NCBI GenBank assembly: GCA_030018605.1 | Contig: JASEHP010000001.1 | Coordinates: 1-36,459, forward strand | Length of the DNA stretch: 36,459 nt | Source: Thermodesulfovibrionales bacterium | Lineage (GTDB): Bacteria > Nitrospirota > Thermodesulfovibrionia > Thermodesulfovibrionales > UBA1546 | Direction of reading: 5' to 3' | Part shown: one piece after another, positions 3,444 through 36,459 of the stretch | How positions within the stretch are numbered: the first letter of the stretch is position 1 | Layout: each line of letters begins with the position of its first letter | Position numbers and translations under genes: made by a program | Notes under the pieces: model-generated | Database searches by the model: none | Seen by the model: the letters and a program-made list of their open reading frames with translations, nothing else | Told to the model about the DNA's origin: nothing

Positions 3444-4382
3444 TTATTTTTTCTCAGGGGCAGCGCTGCCTTTTGCCTTATCTTTCCCGCTGTCCTTTAT
3501 GCCCTTTGAGGCAAGGTATTTGTCCACTTCCGCCTTGTTAATTTTAACCTTGTACATCTTTTTTATATCCTGCAGATATTTGTCTAATATCTCCTTCTGC
3601 TTCTCCTGCAGCAGAACCCTTCTAATATCTTCCTTTATATTGTTGATGTCAACATTTTTGCCTTTTTTCCTGTCAGTAACCTTGATAATGTGATAGCCGA
3701 ATTCGGTCTTGACAGGCTGGCTTACATCGCCCTTCTTCAATGCCCTGATGGCATTGTTGAACTCAGGCGGCATTTTGCCATCCTCGAAGGAGCCGAGATC
3801 GCCGCCGAGCGCTGCACTCTGTTTGTCTTCAGACAGCTCTTTTGCCACCTTTGCAAAATCCTCACCTTTTTTAATCCGCTCATGCGCCTTCTTTATAGTC
3901 GCCTCGGATTTGGTCATGATATGGCTCAACCGGATTTGTTCGGGAGATGCTAACTCGCCCATATTCTTCTTGTAATACTCTTTTATCTCGCTGTCGGAAA
4001 CCTTAACCTTCTGCGACAGCTCTTTTTCGAGAAGCATCTGTATTATGGTGATCTTTTTATAGTATTCGAGCTTTTTCTGAAGGGCGCTGTCCTTGTCTAT
4101 GCCTTTTTTTACGGCCTCCTGGTGCAGGGCTTCCTTGTTTGCCATGTCCTCGAGGAAACGCATAAACTGGTTGGAATCCTGCAAAAATGCCTCCCGTACA
4201 TCCTCCGGCATACTCTGAAGCTCTTTCTCAATATCATCTTTGGTTATGCCGATTTCATTCAGTTTGACCAGCGCTGTCCCGGTTTGCTTGCCGGGGTCAG
4301 CCTTCTTTGGCTGCTCGCCTTCCTTTTTGGCGCATGAAGCTATAAGCAAAAGACTAACAAAAAACAATAAAAACTTTTTCAT
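3444..4382 (-). CDS. Parvulin-type peptidyl-prolyl cis-trans isomerase lipoprotein (PrsA/SurA/PpiD-like)
   Basis: Lipobox (LLLIASC), a long helical chaperone-like region, then a parvulin core (RLSHIM...GGDLGSF...FGYHIIKV). Confidence 0.85.
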   Translation of the reverse strand: MKKFLLFFVSLLLIASCAKKEGEQPKKADPGKQTGTALVKLNEIGITKDDIEKELQSMPEDVREAFLQDSNQFMRFLEDMANKEALHQEAVKKGIDKDSALQKKLEYYKKITIIQMLLEKELSQKVKVSDSEIKEYYKKNMGELASPEQIRLSHIMTKSEATIKKAHERIKKGEDFAKVAKELSEDKQSAALGGDLGSFEDGKMPPEFNNAIRALKKGDVSQPVKTEFGYHIIKVTDRKKGKNVDINNIKEDIRRVLLQEKQKEILDKYLQDIKKMYKVKINKAEVDKYLASKGIKDSGKDKAKGSAAPEKK

Positions 4383-13943: not shown

Positions 13944-14027
13944 TATAAGAACATTACATGATTCATATTCTGTAGTATAACAAAACAGGGGTGAAGGTCA
14001 ACAGGGGGCAGCCTCCCCTAAAGTAGC

Positions 14028-14207
14028 GATAAACAGGATTGGTTTGAGCGACATTAGAGATTTTTCGTTTTCGTTCTTGGCGAAATGCAGCACTAACAGC
14101 CGCAACTGTCTGATGCCGAGGCATCGGCAGAGTTTTGCGGCTGTAGCGGAATGAGCCGTAGAACGACAGAAAAATATCTGCGGAAGCGAAAGCCAATCCT
14201 GTTTATC
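14028..14207. mobile_element. MITE-like hairpin element, copy 1 (180 bp)
   Basis: Perfect 15-bp terminal inverted repeats: GATAAACAGGATTGG (14028-14042) and CCAATCCTGTTTATC (14193-14207). AGC flanks both sides. The interior is a long imperfect palindrome. It is homologous to 30854-31042. Confidence 0.75.
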
Positions 14208-14276
14208 AGCAGATTTCGGGACTCATTTCCATGAGAAAACAGCAGGGAAGACCGCCCGCATTGCTTTAATTTAATG

Positions 14277-17505: not shown

Positions 17506-18795
17506 ATGAAAAGAGTAGTTATGACAGGCATTGGCGCAATAACGCCTATTGGAAATTCATTTCGTGAATCATGGTCTGCTGTCCTAAAAGGATTATCAGG
17601 CATAGCTCCTCTAAAAAAGATTGATGCCTCGGTATTGAAATGGCGAGTGGCCGGTGAATTGAAAGGCTTTGATGCGGGGCTGTATCTGTCTCAAAAGGAG
17701 ATGACCCGTCTTGACCCCTTTGTTCATTATGCGGTTGCCGCGTCTTTTATGGCGGCAGAAGATGCGGGATTAATAGATCGAGCAGAAGAGCAGAAGAGCA
17801 GAAGAGCAGAAGTTAAAGACTCCTCACTCGTCACTCGTCACCCGTCACTTGAAAATGCCGGTGTGATTATCGGCTCAAGTCGCGGCGGGATTACTACAAT
17901 TGAAAGGGAATCGGGAAAAATATACGCATCACGCGTCACGCATCACGCATCACGCCTTTCCCCTTACCTCATGCCTTCAACAAGCGTTAATGCGGCAGCA
18001 TCTTATGTTGCGCAAAAACTTGGGATAAAGGGTCACTGTCTTGGCATATCGAATGCCTGCTCATCAGGCGCAAATGCAATAGGCGAGGCGTACAGATTGA
18101 TAAAATCCGGCTATGCAGATATGGTTTTTGCCGGCGGTAGCGAAGCTCCTCTGTGCAGATTGTGCGTAGAAGGATATGGCGTATCAGGAGCCTTGTCAAA
18201 AATAAACGATTCCTCAGCAAGCAGGCCTTTTGATAAAACGAGAGACGGTTTTGTTCTTGCAGAAGGCGCATGTGTTCTTGTCCTTGAAGGTTATGAGTCT
18301 GCGTTAAAAAGAGGGGCAAGGATTTACGGCGAGATTATCGGATACGGCAATACAACTGATGCATTCCATCAGACAAGGCCCAGCGCAGAAGGGGAGGCAA
18401 GGGCGATAAGGCTTGCAATGGAAGAAGGGGGTTTATTGCACGTAGATGTGGATTATATCAATGCGCACGGCACATCAACGCCTCTCGGCGATAAGGCAGA
18501 AACAGAAGCTATAAAGCTTGCTCTCGGCAAAAGGGCTTATGAAATTCCAATAAGTTCTGTGAAGTCCATGACAGGGCACATGCTTGCCGCGTCAGGCGCG
18601 TTTGAGGCTGCTGTTACGTTGATGAGCATTCGTGAGGGCATAATTTCTCCGGCTATAAATCTCAAAACGAAAGACCCTGAGTGCGATTTGAATTATATCA
18701 CCGAAACCAAAAACGCCGATATTAAAACCGCTATTTCCAACTCATTCGGATTTGGAGGGGTGAATGCGGTGCTGGCGTTTAGGAGGGTGAGGTGA
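17506..18795 (+). CDS. fabF: Beta-ketoacyl-ACP synthase II (KAS II) carrying repeat-encoded loop insertions
   Basis: MKRVVMTGIGAITPIG. Catalytic Cys (NACSSG) and both His motifs (NAHGTSTPLGD, MTGHMLAASG). C-terminal NSFGFGGVNA. Confidence 0.9.
   Translation: MKRVVMTGIGAITPIGNSFRESWSAVLKGLSGIAPLKKIDASVLKWRVAGELKGFDAGLYLSQKEMTRLDPFVHYAVAASFMAAEDAGLIDRAEEQKSRRAEVKDSSLVTRHPSLENAGVIIGSSRGGITTIERESGKIYASRVTHHASRLSPYLMPSTSVNAAASYVAQKLGIKGHCLGISNACSSGANAIGEAYRLIKSGYADMVFAGGSEAPLCRLCVEGYGVSGALSKINDSSASRPFDKTRDGFVLAEGACVLVLEGYESALKRGARIYGEIIGYGNTTDAFHQTRPSAEGEARAIRLAMEEGGLLHVDVDYINAHGTSTPLGDKAETEAIKLALGKRAYEIPISSVKSMTGHMLAASGAFEAAVTLMSIREGIISPAINLKTKDPECDLNYITETKNADIKTAISNSFGFGGVNAVLAFRRVR
17780..17852 (+). 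repeat. Octamer array (GAGCAGAA)x4 followed by heptamer array TCACTCG TCACTCG TCACCCG TCACTTG, inside fabF
   Basis: Read directly (17780-17812 and 17825-17852). It encodes RAEEQKSRRAEVKDSSLVTRHPSL. Confidence 0.9.
17923..17955 (+). repeat. Heptamer array ACGCATC ACGCGTC ACGCATC ACGCATC ACGCC inside fabF
   Basis: Read directly. It encodes ASRVTHHASR. Confidence 0.9.
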
Positions 18796-29345: not shown

Positions 29346-29987
29346 TTATTCAGTCATCACTTTGTTTGAAAGCTCGTCTGCATCGCCTGGGATCACAGGG
29401 AAGTGCTTTGCAAGGAGCGCTCCAGCCTCTTTTACGGCATCACACAATGAATCGCAGGCACGGCTTTCTTTTATTCCCTGAGATACGGTTGTCGCAAATT
29501 TATTTAGAGTCTCCTGTTCGATCTTTTCATAAATTCCTTTATCAGCAAGAACCCAGACCTTTTTTTCAAGGATGGAAATGAAGAACAGAACCCCTGTATT
29601 TTTTCTGGTCTTATAAAGTCCCTTTTCATAAAATGCCCTGACAGCCCTCTGCCTTACAGTTTCCTCCTTTCTTTTGAAGCCAATGAATGAAATTTTAAGA
29701 ACTGGAAATCTCCTGAATAAAAATCTGGAAGGGAAAAACAAGATAAGACTCACTGGAATGAAAGACCAGACAGATGAGTTGAAGTATAAGGCAGTTATAA
29801 TAAGCGAGATGAGACTTCCGAGGAATATCCCCCCCAATATTTCCGCCTCGATGTATTGGTCGCTGCTGTCAACAACCATTACAGCAATCTCTCCAATGGT
29901 GCGGGATTCAACCTCACAGGTTGTCTCTGTTATTCTTTTTCGCTCTTCTTTTGTAAAAAATCTTTTTGCCTTTGACATATTTTCCAT
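29346..29987 (-). CDS. TPM-domain protein (TLP18.3/Psb32/MOLO-1 family) with two TM helices
   Basis: FTKEERKRITETTCEVESRTIGEIAVMVV... and ...NTGVLFFISILEKKVWVLADKGIYEKI. Confidence 0.8.
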   Translation of the reverse strand: MENMSKAKRFFTKEERKRITETTCEVESRTIGEIAVMVVDSSDQYIEAEILGGIFLGSLISLIITALYFNSSVWSFIPVSLILFFPSRFLFRRFPVLKISFIGFKRKEETVRQRAVRAFYEKGLYKTRKNTGVLFFISILEKKVWVLADKGIYEKIEQETLNKFATTVSQGIKESRACDSLCDAVKEAGALLAKHFPVIPGDADELSNKVMTE

Positions 29988-31063
29988 TACCAGTCTCCTG
30001 ATGCTCCACCGCCCCCGAAGTCTCCGCCTCCTCCGCTAAAACCACCAGAGTCTTCTCCCCTGCTAAAACCACTGCCGGTTCCATAGTATCCTCCGCCTGA
30101 CCAGAAACCTCCGATGCTGTGATGGCTGCCTGAAGAGAAAAGTTTTGGCAGGAAAAGTCCTGCAAGCAATCCGGCGGCAGAGAGGATGATAAATGCAATA
30201 GGCCCGATTGGGGTAAGCGCCAGATGGACAAGAGCAGGAAGGCCTATTGCTCCTGATACGCCGCCAAAGATTCGCGATATGCTTCCTATGAACAGTAAAG
30301 CTATTACGCCAAAGATAAGAATTGTTAAGAAGCTATGTGTGCCGTTTTTCTTTTTAGGCAGGTGGTTTTTATCAGACTTGAACTCTCCCCTTGTTGCGTC
30401 AATAAGAGAATGCACTCCCGCGACAAAACCTTGGTCAAAATCGCCTCTTTTGAATTTAGGTTTTATAACAAGGTCAACGATTCTTCCCGCAGCAAGGTCA
30501 GTCAACCTTCCTTCGAGCCCGCGGCCAATCTCAATCCGTATCTTTTTTTCCTGTTTAGCCACGGTGATGATTATGCCGTTGTCTTTCCCTTTCTGTCCTA
30601 TCTTCCATGCCTCAGCAGCTTTAATGCTGAATTCCTCTAAGACTTCTCCCTCAAGAGACGGGATTGTAAGGATGACAATCTGCGTTGAATCTGTCTGTTC
30701 AAAAGACTTCAGCTCTTTTTCCAGTTCAGCCTTAGTTGGCTGGGATAGCATATTTGCGTAATCGTTGACATGTCCCTGAAGTTTCGGGACATCAAGGGCA
30801 AAAACGGAGCGTGAAGAGAAGGAAATAAAAAGAAGACTTATAGCCAGAATGAAATAACAGGCAGTGATGCTTTGAGCGATATTCGATATTTTTCGGTAAC
30901 AGTTCTTAGCGAAATGGAGCGGCCACAGCCTCGATTGTCTGAGTTCCGAAAGCCTTCGGAACGAGTTTCGAGGATGTAGCGGAATGAGCTTAGAACTGTC
31001 GATAAAATATCGCCGGTAGCGAAAGGCTTTACTGCCTGTTATGACCAATACCTTTTCTCTCAA
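29987..31063 (-). CDS. YgcG-like TPM-domain protein with a Gly-rich C-terminus; the N-terminal region is interrupted in frame by a MITE
   Basis: HVNDYANMLS...TDSTQIVILTIPSLEGE...KGKDNGIIITVAKQEKKIRIEIGRGLEG, a TM, then a GGG-rich tail. The ATG abuts the lemA stop. Confidence 0.8.
   Translation of the reverse strand: MREKVLVITGSKAFRYRRYFIDSSKLIPLHPRNSFRRLSELRQSRLWPLHFAKNCYRKISNIAQSITACYFILAISLLFISFSSRSVFALDVPKLQGHVNDYANMLSQPTKAELEKELKSFEQTDSTQIVILTIPSLEGEVLEEFSIKAAEAWKIGQKGKDNGIIITVAKQEKKIRIEIGRGLEGRLTDLAAGRIVDLVIKPKFKRGDFDQGFVAGVHSLIDATRGEFKSDKNHLPKKKNGTHSFLTILIFGVIALLFIGSISRIFGGVSGAIGLPALVHLALTPIGPIAFIILSAAGLLAGLFLPKLFSSGSHHSIGGFWSGGGYYGTGSGFSRGEDSGGFSGGGGDFGGGGASGDW
30854..31042. mobile_element. 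MITE-like hairpin element, copy 2 (189 bp), inside codons 8-70 of the TPM gene
   Basis: 12-bp perfect terminal inverted repeats: ATAACAGGCAGT (30854-30865) and ACTGCCTGTTAT (31031-31042). By eye it is about 70% identical to 14028-14207. The internal stems are kept through different sequences. Confidence 0.75.
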
Positions 31064-31648
31064 TTAAAACTTCACCTGCGGCGCTTTTTCAGCTCCTGCC
31101 TCTGCCTTGAAAGGCTCTCTGGACTTTAATTGCAGCAGGACTTTGTTGGTAATGTTATTCGGGAATATCCTGATTGACGTATTGAATGTCTCTACAGCTT
31201 TGTTGTAACGAGTGCGTGCGACATTTATCCTGTTTTCCGTTCCTTCAATCTGGTGCTGAAGGTCTTTGAAATTCTGGTTTGCCTTGAGGTCAGGATATTT
31301 TTCAACTACGACCATAAGCCTTGAAAGCGCACTGCTTAAAGCTCCCTGTGCCTCCTGAAACTGAGTAAATGCCTGAGGGTTATCAAGCATGCTTTCCGAC
31401 ATCTGTATTGAGCCGACCTTTGCCCTTGCTTCAGTAACTGCGGTAAGTGTTTCTCTTTCATGCTTGGCGTATGCCTTTACGACTTCAACGAGATTTGGGA
31501 TTAAATCATTTCTCCTCTGGTATGACCCTTCAACATCACCCCACGCTGCCTTTACAGCCTCTTCATTTGCCTGCATTGTGTTATAACCGCAGCCTGAAAG
31601 GGCGAAAACAGTTACCAAGATTAAAAGATAAAGCAGATTTTTTCTCAT
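31064..31648 (-). CDS. lemA: LemA-family protein
   Basis: Lipoprotein/anchor N-terminus (SGCGYN) with [25 protein letters not shown]...ERETL..V.EAR and ...[13 protein letters not shown]. Confidence 0.9.
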
Positions 31649-36129: not shown

Positions 36130-36139
36130 GACCTTAAAA

Positions 36140-36198
36140 TTCCAAATTCCAAATTCCAAATTCCAAATATTTGGTTATTGAGATTTGGTCATTGGTCA
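36140..36198. repeat. Heptamer arrays (TTCCAAA)x4, then TAT, then TTGGTTA TTGAGAT TTGGTCA TTGGTCA
   Basis: Read directly. They fill the spacer between the GGDEF fragment stop and the MglA-like start. Confidence 0.9.
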
Positions 36199-36380: not shown

Positions 36381-36437
36381 TTAAATCATCTAAAATGTAA
36401 CCGAGAAGGTACTGGTTAAATCATCTAAAATGTAACC
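36381..36437. repeat. Two perfect 22-bp direct repeats TTAAATCATCTAAAATGTAACC separated by 13 bp
   Basis: Copies at 36381-36402 and 36416-36437. The first begins exactly where GGDEF homology ends. The window ends 22 bp later. Confidence 0.85.
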
Positions 36438-36459
36438 CAAAACATATGGTATAGGGGGT

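Follow-up and report, generated by a model that had tools for sequence, protein, structure and literature searches.

A dispersed hairpin repeat of Nitrospirota lies in frame ahead of the predicted signal-peptide core of a TPM-domain gene

How can a gene for a predicted exported protein hold a long hairpin between its start codon and the hydrophobic core of its signal peptide and still be read as a single open frame? The question is raised by a 36,459-nt stretch of DNA (the window; positions 1 to 36,459 of contig JASEHP010000001.1, assembly GCA_030018605.1) from a Thermodesulfovibrionales bacterium of the phylum Nitrospirota, lineage UBA1546. Within it, a 189-bp element that we call copy A occupies positions 30854..31042 of the minus strand, inside a YgcG-like gene encoding a TPM-domain protein. 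A preliminary description of this DNA, made from the letters alone, took the element for a MITE (miniature inverted-repeat transposable element) with perfect 12-bp terminal inverted repeats (TIRs), inserted as 63 stop-free codons into a signal-peptide coding region. Its coordinates and frame are confirmed here: copy A corresponds to codons 8-70 of the minus-strand open reading frame (ORF) 29987-31063 (358 aa, TTG start), contains no stop codon in the TPM frame, and ends in the perfect 12-bp pair ATAACAGGCAGT (30854-30865) and ACTGCCTGTTAT (31031-31042). We find that copy A belongs to a family of hairpin repeats dispersed through Nitrospirota and that the same family recurs at the same gene junction in other lineages. 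We propose that the element is probably translated as part of a long signal-peptide n-region which would be removed on export.

The TPM gene follows its upstream neighbour without a spacer. The lemA gene (31064..31648, minus strand; Pfam LemA, E 7.5e-57) ends in a stop codon at 31064-31066, and the TTG start of the TPM gene lies directly after it at 31061-31063. A Shine-Dalgarno-like AGGTGA, a putative ribosome-binding site, is found 8 nt upstream of this TTG within the last lemA codons (31072..31077, minus strand). An exact look-up of the LemA of the window among public assemblies gave no record. TPM codons 1-7 (TTG AGA GAA AAG GTA TTG GTC, encoding MREKVLV; 31043..31063, minus strand) are followed by copy A and then by the signal-peptide h- and c-regions, FILAISLLFISFSSRSVFA (30797..30853, minus strand), with a predicted cleavage site after VFA; all orthologues align from ALDVP on. 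The mature YgcG-like protein (29987..30796, minus strand, including the stop codon) has a C-terminal membrane segment and a Gly-rich tail. The Pfam TPM_phosphatase domain covers residues 99-222 (E 4e-39), and residues 1-98 of the ORF have no Pfam match. When the element is removed, MREKVLV joins FILAISLLFISFSSRSVFA to give MREKVLVFILAISLLFISFSSRSVFA, in which n-, h- and c-regions are all present, the last of them ending in VFA, with cleavage before LDVP. The textbook signal peptide that the preliminary description expected from this deletion is thus indeed rebuilt. Signal-peptide features were judged by inspection and Kyte-Doolittle windows, which give a net n-region charge of +12 with the element and +1 without it, a mean h-region hydrophobicity of 2.8-3.3, and a cleavage site between VFA and LD. 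On these features the presequence would be of the Sec type, its n-region being positive, its h-region hydrophobic and the residues at positions -3 and -1 small.

What, then, is the element? We searched for relatives with a single degenerate pattern of 26 nt, drawn from the family's most conserved block, across 185,579 species-representative genomes. The pattern matched 43 stretches, 39 of which proved real on checking with a covariance model, and all 39 come from metagenome-assembled genomes (MAGs) of Nitrospirota, Thermodesulfovibrionales or Dissulfurispiraceae. These 39 loci hold about 42 copies, with up to seven from a single MAG in the stretches fetched. The four other matches are tRNA-like, these being in Clostridia, or unrelated, and one match in a viral contig was rejected by the covariance model as a false positive. 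With this model (R1), sense-strand scores of true copies are 115-193 bits and antisense scores about 41 bits; copy A scores 181.6 bits on the minus strand (E 2e-41) and 40.8 bits on the plus strand. Within the window R1 detects only copy A and one further copy, copy B. In Rfam 15 no family matched any part of the window at gathering score, and the element drew only noise at E<=10; a literature search returned no described repeat of Nitrospirota or Thermodesulfovibrio, no MITE in a signal peptide and no paper on the element. The family is probably present in a culturable strain as well, because P0133, a 43-aa protein of the cultured isolate Thermodesulfovibrio sp. N1 (THER_1987, annotated as hypothetical), matches the peptide profile of the element (E 4.5e-7).

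Copy A, a member of subfamily A, folds as one long hairpin that is almost perfect, 54 of its 58 pairs being Watson-Crick, and that has a folding energy of -70.8 kcal/mol (z = -7.6), which none of 200 shuffles equals. The 12-bp ends exist as had been claimed, but they are only the basal stem of this hairpin: its 5' arm reads ATAACAGGCAGT in the sense direction (31031..31042, minus strand) and its 3' arm ACTGCCTGTTAT (30854..30865, minus strand). Further in lie two conserved blocks that face each other. The 5'-arm block, GTTCTAAGCTCATTCCGCTACA (30975..30996, minus strand), is a mostly unpaired internal loop and the most invariant part of the family; the 3'-arm block opposite it, CGCTCCATTTCGCTAAGAAC (30902..30921, minus strand), is a direct, not inverted, copy of the 5'-arm motif. 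The apical hairpin, GTTCCGAAGGCTTTCGGAAC (30943..30962, minus strand), differs in length among copies.

The same architecture is seen across the family. An alignment of 37 copies (A4) has a consensus of one hairpin with 58 pairs in seven helices, in which 88.9% of cells are paired, versus 34-43% when the partners are slid. Changes on both sides occur in 43 of the 58 pairs, a level that 0 of 500 shuffles reach, including 19 of 21 pairs in the basal helix 1 and all four pairs of the apical helix 7. The terminal stem is complementary within each copy and free to vary in sequence (for example ATAACAGGCAGT, GAGGAGAGGAGGG and GATGGAAGGGGAG), and is the least sequence-conserved part of the family. 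The invariant parts are the asymmetric internal loops CTTTCGCT, GTTCTAAGCTCATTCCGCTACA, CAAAACTC, TCAGACAGT, CGCTnCATTTCGCTAAGAAC and TCGCTCAA, in which a TYCGCT motif recurs, directly oriented, on each arm. Of the pair cells in the alignment, 85% are Watson-Crick and few are G-U; counted on the sense strand, A-C mismatches are more frequent than G-U pairs, at 106 versus 57 (about 1.8:1), or 67 versus 37 without systematic columns. The G-U tolerance expected of a transcribed sense strand is not seen, so the structure signal does not point to a sense-strand RNA, and the covariation is equally consistent with a DNA palindrome. The A-C excess could arise from selection on the antisense strand or from mismatches shared by ancestry; as it lies on the antisense side and is partly lineage-shared, the asymmetry was dropped as a pointer to the folding strand. 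Two copies from one genome (MAG025; L007 252-467 and L009 2567-2875) are each interrupted, at an identical internal position following GCGGCTGT, by a nested insertion. This insertion begins CAGGCAATGGTATGGTC; the version in L007 is 42 nt long and itself a hairpin, and that in L009 is longer.

The MITE label therefore needs qualification. Dispersed copies and presence or absence between relatives are as expected of such an element, but the termini are unconserved and co-varying, the conserved parts are internal loops, and no consistent target-site duplication or fixed end was found in the 44 copies compared; the left flanks likewise show no conserved target sequence that is consistent among copies. 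At about 180 bp, the unit has no room for an internal transposase gene. Neither a parent insertion sequence (IS) sharing the ends of the element nor a RAYT or TnpA partner turned up, no search having been aimed at either. We regard the family as probably a non-autonomous mobile element that is recognised by its structure.

Filled and empty sites can be compared directly at copy B (14016..14220, minus strand; R1 179.1 bits), an intergenic member of subfamily B flanked by a DUF1858 gene and a histidine-kinase gene. Copies A and B align in the same orientation, copy B having stops in the frame that copy A uses, and the copy B fold is again highly stable (-86.4 kcal/mol, z -9.6). Its site is empty in two relatives, L134 and L135, whose histidine kinase is 91% identical and in whose contigs R1 finds no copy: L135 8643-8924 and L134 1396-1840 read CTGCAAAG where window positions 14016-14232 have about 216-228 extra bases. 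These comprise, in order, a 12-nt stretch ATGGAAATGAGT, the 5' flank CCCGAAATCTGCT, the hairpin at 14028-14207 and the 3' flank GCTACTTTAGGG. From this comparison it follows that the subfamily B unit takes in about 12 conserved bases on each side, and is about 205 bp long; the hairpin is where the preliminary description had placed the second copy, which had been delimited too narrowly. GAG occurs on both sides of the insert, and a 3-bp duplication is possible on this one filled-versus-empty comparison. L134 also carries a different insertion, of about 160 nt, just past the DUF1858 stop.

The comparison at the TPM locus points the same way. Relatives whose mature TPM protein is 83-93% identical lack copy A at the junction: L051 and L052 have an empty 48-nt junction with a GTG start, L004 and L053 an unrelated 95-nt element, and L050 a CGCAATGACA...TGTCATTGCG hairpin repeat. 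The nearest copies to copy A are not at this junction (L028, 82%; L032, 78%), whereas the junction copies are 68-74% identical to it; copy B groups with a tight subfamily found in several MAGs (81-92%). On these alignments copy A is an insertion at the TPM junction, and with about 40 copies in Nitrospirota and empty sites at both loci of the window, the element is multi-copy and inserted, as had been proposed.

Copy A is not alone at this junction. The same family lies between lemA and TPM in L001, L002, L003, L068, L079, L102/L099 and L121 in addition to the window. The first three came from a protein-based search and have TPM orthologues 58-66% identical with the element at the same place; the others come from an unbiased sample of 80 metagenome TPM loci (L054-L133) that were chosen by mature-domain motifs only, five of which (L068, L079, L102, L099 and L121) carry it. 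Vertical inheritance of these junction copies was considered and rejected in favour of repeated insertion, as copy A has its nearest relatives elsewhere and the junction copies span subfamilies. The same data bear on whether the 63 residues are a true, vertically inherited N-terminal domain of the TPM orthogroup, as a segment shared by distant orthologues might indicate. Such sharing does exist, at 53-66% identity, and orthologues 58-66% identical encode homologous peptides of the form YFIDSSKLxPLxPRNS...ISNIAQ. A domain is nevertheless extremely improbable: the same DNA is dispersed over some 40 intergenic places and has stops in that frame, as in copy B; copy A is nearer to the non-junction copy in L028 than to any junction copy; the junction copies are of different subfamilies and differ in the frame that is read; the segment is missing from the closest relatives; and Pfam recognises nothing in it.

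The property that the junction copies do share is an open frame. All nine are in the sense orientation and all nine are open into TPM, including those of L121 and L102, which are read partly in frames other than the one used by copy A (frame A) and are still stop-free. In every junction case a canonical start lies after the lemA stop and ahead of the element's 5' edge. In the window no in-frame ATG, GTG or TTG occurs from copy A to the cleavage site, and L003, L079, L102/L099 and L121 similarly have no canonical downstream start that keeps the h-region. The pattern extends to junctions of other content: of 29 distinct junctions of at least 160 nt in the metagenome sample, 19 form a single stop-free frame, in phase with TPM, that runs from the lemA stop as far as the cleavage site; out of phase only 1 of 58 frames is open, and after shuffling 4.9% of junctions are. 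The peptides encoded by these extensions carry a net charge of +4 to +12 and lack any hydrophobic stretch, and a normal h-region and an AXA-like site come after them; the conserved peptide of frame A is ...KLIPLQPQNSP...LHFAKN....

At least three other inserts at the junction are also read through, namely an element encoding K(Q)TGHxIFAHSRPD, the CGCAATGACA hairpin and a PSPxPP...PLPLWERVRVRG type. The junction is hypervariable, measuring 64-321 nt from the lemA stop to the cleavage site (L054-L133, L001-L004 and L050-L053), with at least four repeat-like inserts in different lineages, and relatives about 90% identical carry unrelated signal-peptide sequences. The element of about 95 nt, with hairpin GTCCCGATAAGTCGGGAC and peptide K(Q)TG(H/Y)xIFAHSRPD, occupies the junction in many orthologues, at L004 9895-10000 and also in L053, L056, L057 and L091. 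It is probably another dispersed repeat, because fragments of it lie away from TPM loci (partial matches at L012 3053-3089, L032 2490-2616 and L060 529-550). It shares AGACAGGA and TTTxCGCT with the long element near the 5' end and was considered as a deletion derivative of it; R1 gives no match, and we treat it as separate.

Why an insertion should fall here at all is suggested by where the family usually lies. Flanking ORFs were called by a mechanical long-ORF heuristic, so that the context counts are rough. Most copies are intergenic and occupy short spacers, with 21 sense and 7 antisense copies between co-directional genes, 7 between divergent and 3 between convergent genes, which makes for a modest overall bias towards the sense orientation. 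From the stop of a co-oriented upstream gene to the element's 5' end the median distance is about 10 nt, and no downstream gene is common to the other copies. Since lemA and TPM have no spacer between them, an insertion point 21 nt past the lemA stop is already within TPM. In-frame insertions into host ORFs are a minority of copies, seen in TPM at nine loci and in a LysM and YkuD (L,D-transpeptidase) protein of L026, where a subfamily B copy (3626-3808, minus strand) immediately precedes, in frame, the hydrophobic core of the signal peptide and a GTG start stands 8 codons ahead of the copy. A peptide-profile search for further fusions returned only 14 small hypothetical or spurious ORFs and was incomplete, as it missed the known TPM cases.

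Taken with the open junctions, these observations suggest the following course of events, which we consider the probable one. The element, whose usual landing place would be a short spacer just past the stop codon of a gene, would have inserted 21 nt into the TPM coding region because the TPM start adjoins the lemA stop. Ribosomes would initiate at the TTG, coupled to lemA termination by termination-reinitiation, unwind the hairpin and translate 63 extra residues of a strongly basic, non-hydrophobic n-region. The positive-inside rule would keep this extension in the cytoplasm, the unaltered h- and c-regions would still direct Sec export, and signal peptidase would remove the entire presequence of 89 residues. 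With the whole presequence removed, the mature protein would be unaltered and the insertion nearly neutral. The n-region would thus be a permissive site, from which inserts that break the frame or part the TPM start from the lemA stop are lost. Translation through the element, export and cleavage are steps that we infer from the sequences. The mature part is under purifying selection, with a dN/dS against relatives of 0.09-0.14, the same as among element-free relatives. Of the three outcomes set out in the preliminary description (a tolerated long n-region, abolished export, or a switch for the lemA-TPM-TPM operon), the comparative data on open junctions, basic extensions and dN/dS favour the first.

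Several points weigh against this proposal. Frame A is stop-free in 24 of 42 copies (57%), the other two sense frames in 10 and 8, so the absence of stops from any single copy is weak evidence, and the chance that a copy in random phase is open averages about 0.33. Translation could be impeded by a hairpin of -71 kcal/mol that starts 21 nt past the start codon. In a modelled fold of 311 nt (30790-31100, minus strand), the purine-rich start region UUGAGAGAAAAGG pairs with the pyrimidine-rich signal-peptide codons CUUCUUUUU...CCUUCUCUU; such pairing across the base of the hairpin could occlude the TPM start codon. L001, L002 and L068 have plausible starts directly after the element, where read-through is not obligatory, and near-cognate ATT, CTG or ATA starts just 3' of copy A are possible. 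Finally, the insertion may be too young for pseudogene decay to show in dN/dS.

Some of these points suit a different account, in which the element is an untranslated intercistronic RNA hairpin, TPM translation begins after it at ATT, CTG or ATA or on an RNase-processed 5' end, and the open frame is a by-product. That most family copies are intergenic, that frame A is commonly open anyway, that good starts stand at the 3' edge of the element in those three loci, and that some relatives have signal peptides without a charged n-region, such as MLTTFIFYFLLIISPAHA, would all agree with it. We consider it possible, if unlikely. The window and the four other junctions named above offer no canonical downstream start that keeps the h-region, and the 3' arm is buried in the basal stem with no Shine-Dalgarno sequence ahead of it. 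An untranslated spacer, moreover, would not be expected to be open only in the TPM phase, or in nine of nine junction copies, two of them by way of other frames.

It is quite unlikely that the insertion disabled export or expression of TPM, the gene being now a pseudogene too young to have decayed or one whose protein is mislocalised. The near-perfect hairpin of copy A does suggest a fairly recent insertion, and a pairwise dN/dS cannot date the event. At least eight diverged lineages, however, keep the same arrangement together with an intact TPM gene, dN/dS is not raised, the extension obeys the positive-inside rule, and the second TPM-domain gene of the operon (29346..29987, minus strand), which overlaps the stop of the first, is intact.

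Recurrence at one junction, always in the sense orientation, could also mean that the element is a selected cis-regulatory device of the lemA-TPM-TPM operon, its hairpin or basic peptide tuning coupling, mRNA stability or export. The strong conservation of the internal loops across subfamilies, the sense bias of the family and the pairing of the start region across the hairpin base would fit such a role. The nearest relatives do without the element, though, at least three unrelated repeat families occupy the junction in other lineages, which fits a permissive site better, and the other copies share no downstream gene. A scan for promoters and terminators around copy A gave nothing above chance. 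We found no support for the operon switch raised in the preliminary description, and regard selected regulation as improbable. A bolder proposition, that the family represents a new, structure-defined class of mobile element (a hairpin of about 180 nt with direct TYCGCT loops and without TIRs or duplication, moved by a hairpin-recognising enzyme and aimed 10-30 nt past stop codons) whose repeated capture in n-regions has been selected for tuning of coupling or export kinetics, we hold to be doubtful.

The closest parallels are with repeats that are already known to enter genes. Rickettsia palindromic elements (RPEs) fuse in frame into host ORFs (Ogata et al. 2000, 2002, as outlined in PMC10969869 and PMC3184786), and in-frame fusion, including 5' extensions, is also described for ERIC, BOX and other repeats (PMC10969869, PMC3184786). 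RPEs resemble the present family in being palindromic, of about 100-190 bp, with an intrinsically open frame and a lineage-restricted distribution, and in having both intergenic copies and in-frame fusions to host ORFs. RPEs belong to another phylum, and the two are likened by description, with no sequence homology expected. RPEs are spread through the bodies of metabolic enzymes, whereas most Nitrospirota copies are intergenic and their rare in-frame cases cluster in signal-peptide n-regions (those of TPM and of a single YkuD protein).

In Bacillus, the structure of the mobile repeat bcr1 is kept by compensatory change (PMC3184786, citing Okstad 2004, Klevan 2007 and Kristoffersen 2011). The bcr1 and group A repeats of the Bacillus cereus group match ours in interspersed units of about 155-180 bp, compensatory changes, a distribution that varies between close strains and a frequent location in transcribed intergenic regions (PMC3184786). 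bcr1 differs in having 5-bp terminal direct repeats and a two-stem, cruciform-like fold, the Nitrospirota family being a single hairpin without consistent duplication.

Classical MITEs, ERIC, BOX and Correia/NEMIS elements are likewise small, non-coding, multi-copy and hairpin-forming, and can lengthen an ORF in frame at its 5' or 3' end (PMC10969869, PMC3184786). MITEs are, however, defined by conserved IS-derived TIRs and target duplications, and the termini of the Nitrospirota family are its least conserved part. Recognition of structure instead of TIRs, the lack of target duplication and long imperfect hairpins are likenesses to the REPIN/RAYT and IS200/IS605 systems. REPINs and REPs are mobilised by RAYT, a REPIN consisting of two inverted short REPs with conserved arms. 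The conserved parts of a REPIN are its arms, whereas the Nitrospirota loops are direct, not inverted, copies of a motif. At the protein level, the extended signal peptide region (ESPR) of autotransporters is a conserved protein motif for which a part in export kinetics has been proposed. ESPRs and other long n-regions of Sec or Tat signals resemble the TPM case in placing a long N-terminal extension, removed on cleavage, before a normal h- and c-region; the Nitrospirota extension differs in being encoded by a mobile repeat and in varying between close relatives.

Elsewhere in the window, short tandem repeats at 17780-17812 (GAGCAGAA x4.1) and 36137-36168 (AAATTCC x4.6) and two 27-nt direct repeats, 35 nt apart, at 36381-36442 near the window end are apparently unrelated to the element.

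The family is thus RPE-like: the repeat family itself is undescribed, and the principle of in-frame repeat fusion is already known. It is a new family without a new principle, because in-frame palindromic fusions are established for RPE, ERIC and BOX elements and compensatory structure for bcr1. What stands out is the concentration of in-frame cases in signal-peptide n-regions and the reuse of one junction by several repeat families. The finding contributes a repeat family not described before, from a phylum that has been little studied, and as cultured Thermodesulfovibrio appear to carry it, experiments should be possible. It gives a natural example of where in-frame inserts survive, in an n-region that would be cleaved off at a translationally coupled gene start, and a junction struck by at least four repeat families and yet remaining one ORF is a natural experiment on the length and arbitrariness of Sec n-regions. 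It also carries a warning for annotation, in that N-terminal 'extensions' of exported proteins here are repeat-encoded, and are neither domains nor gene-calling errors.

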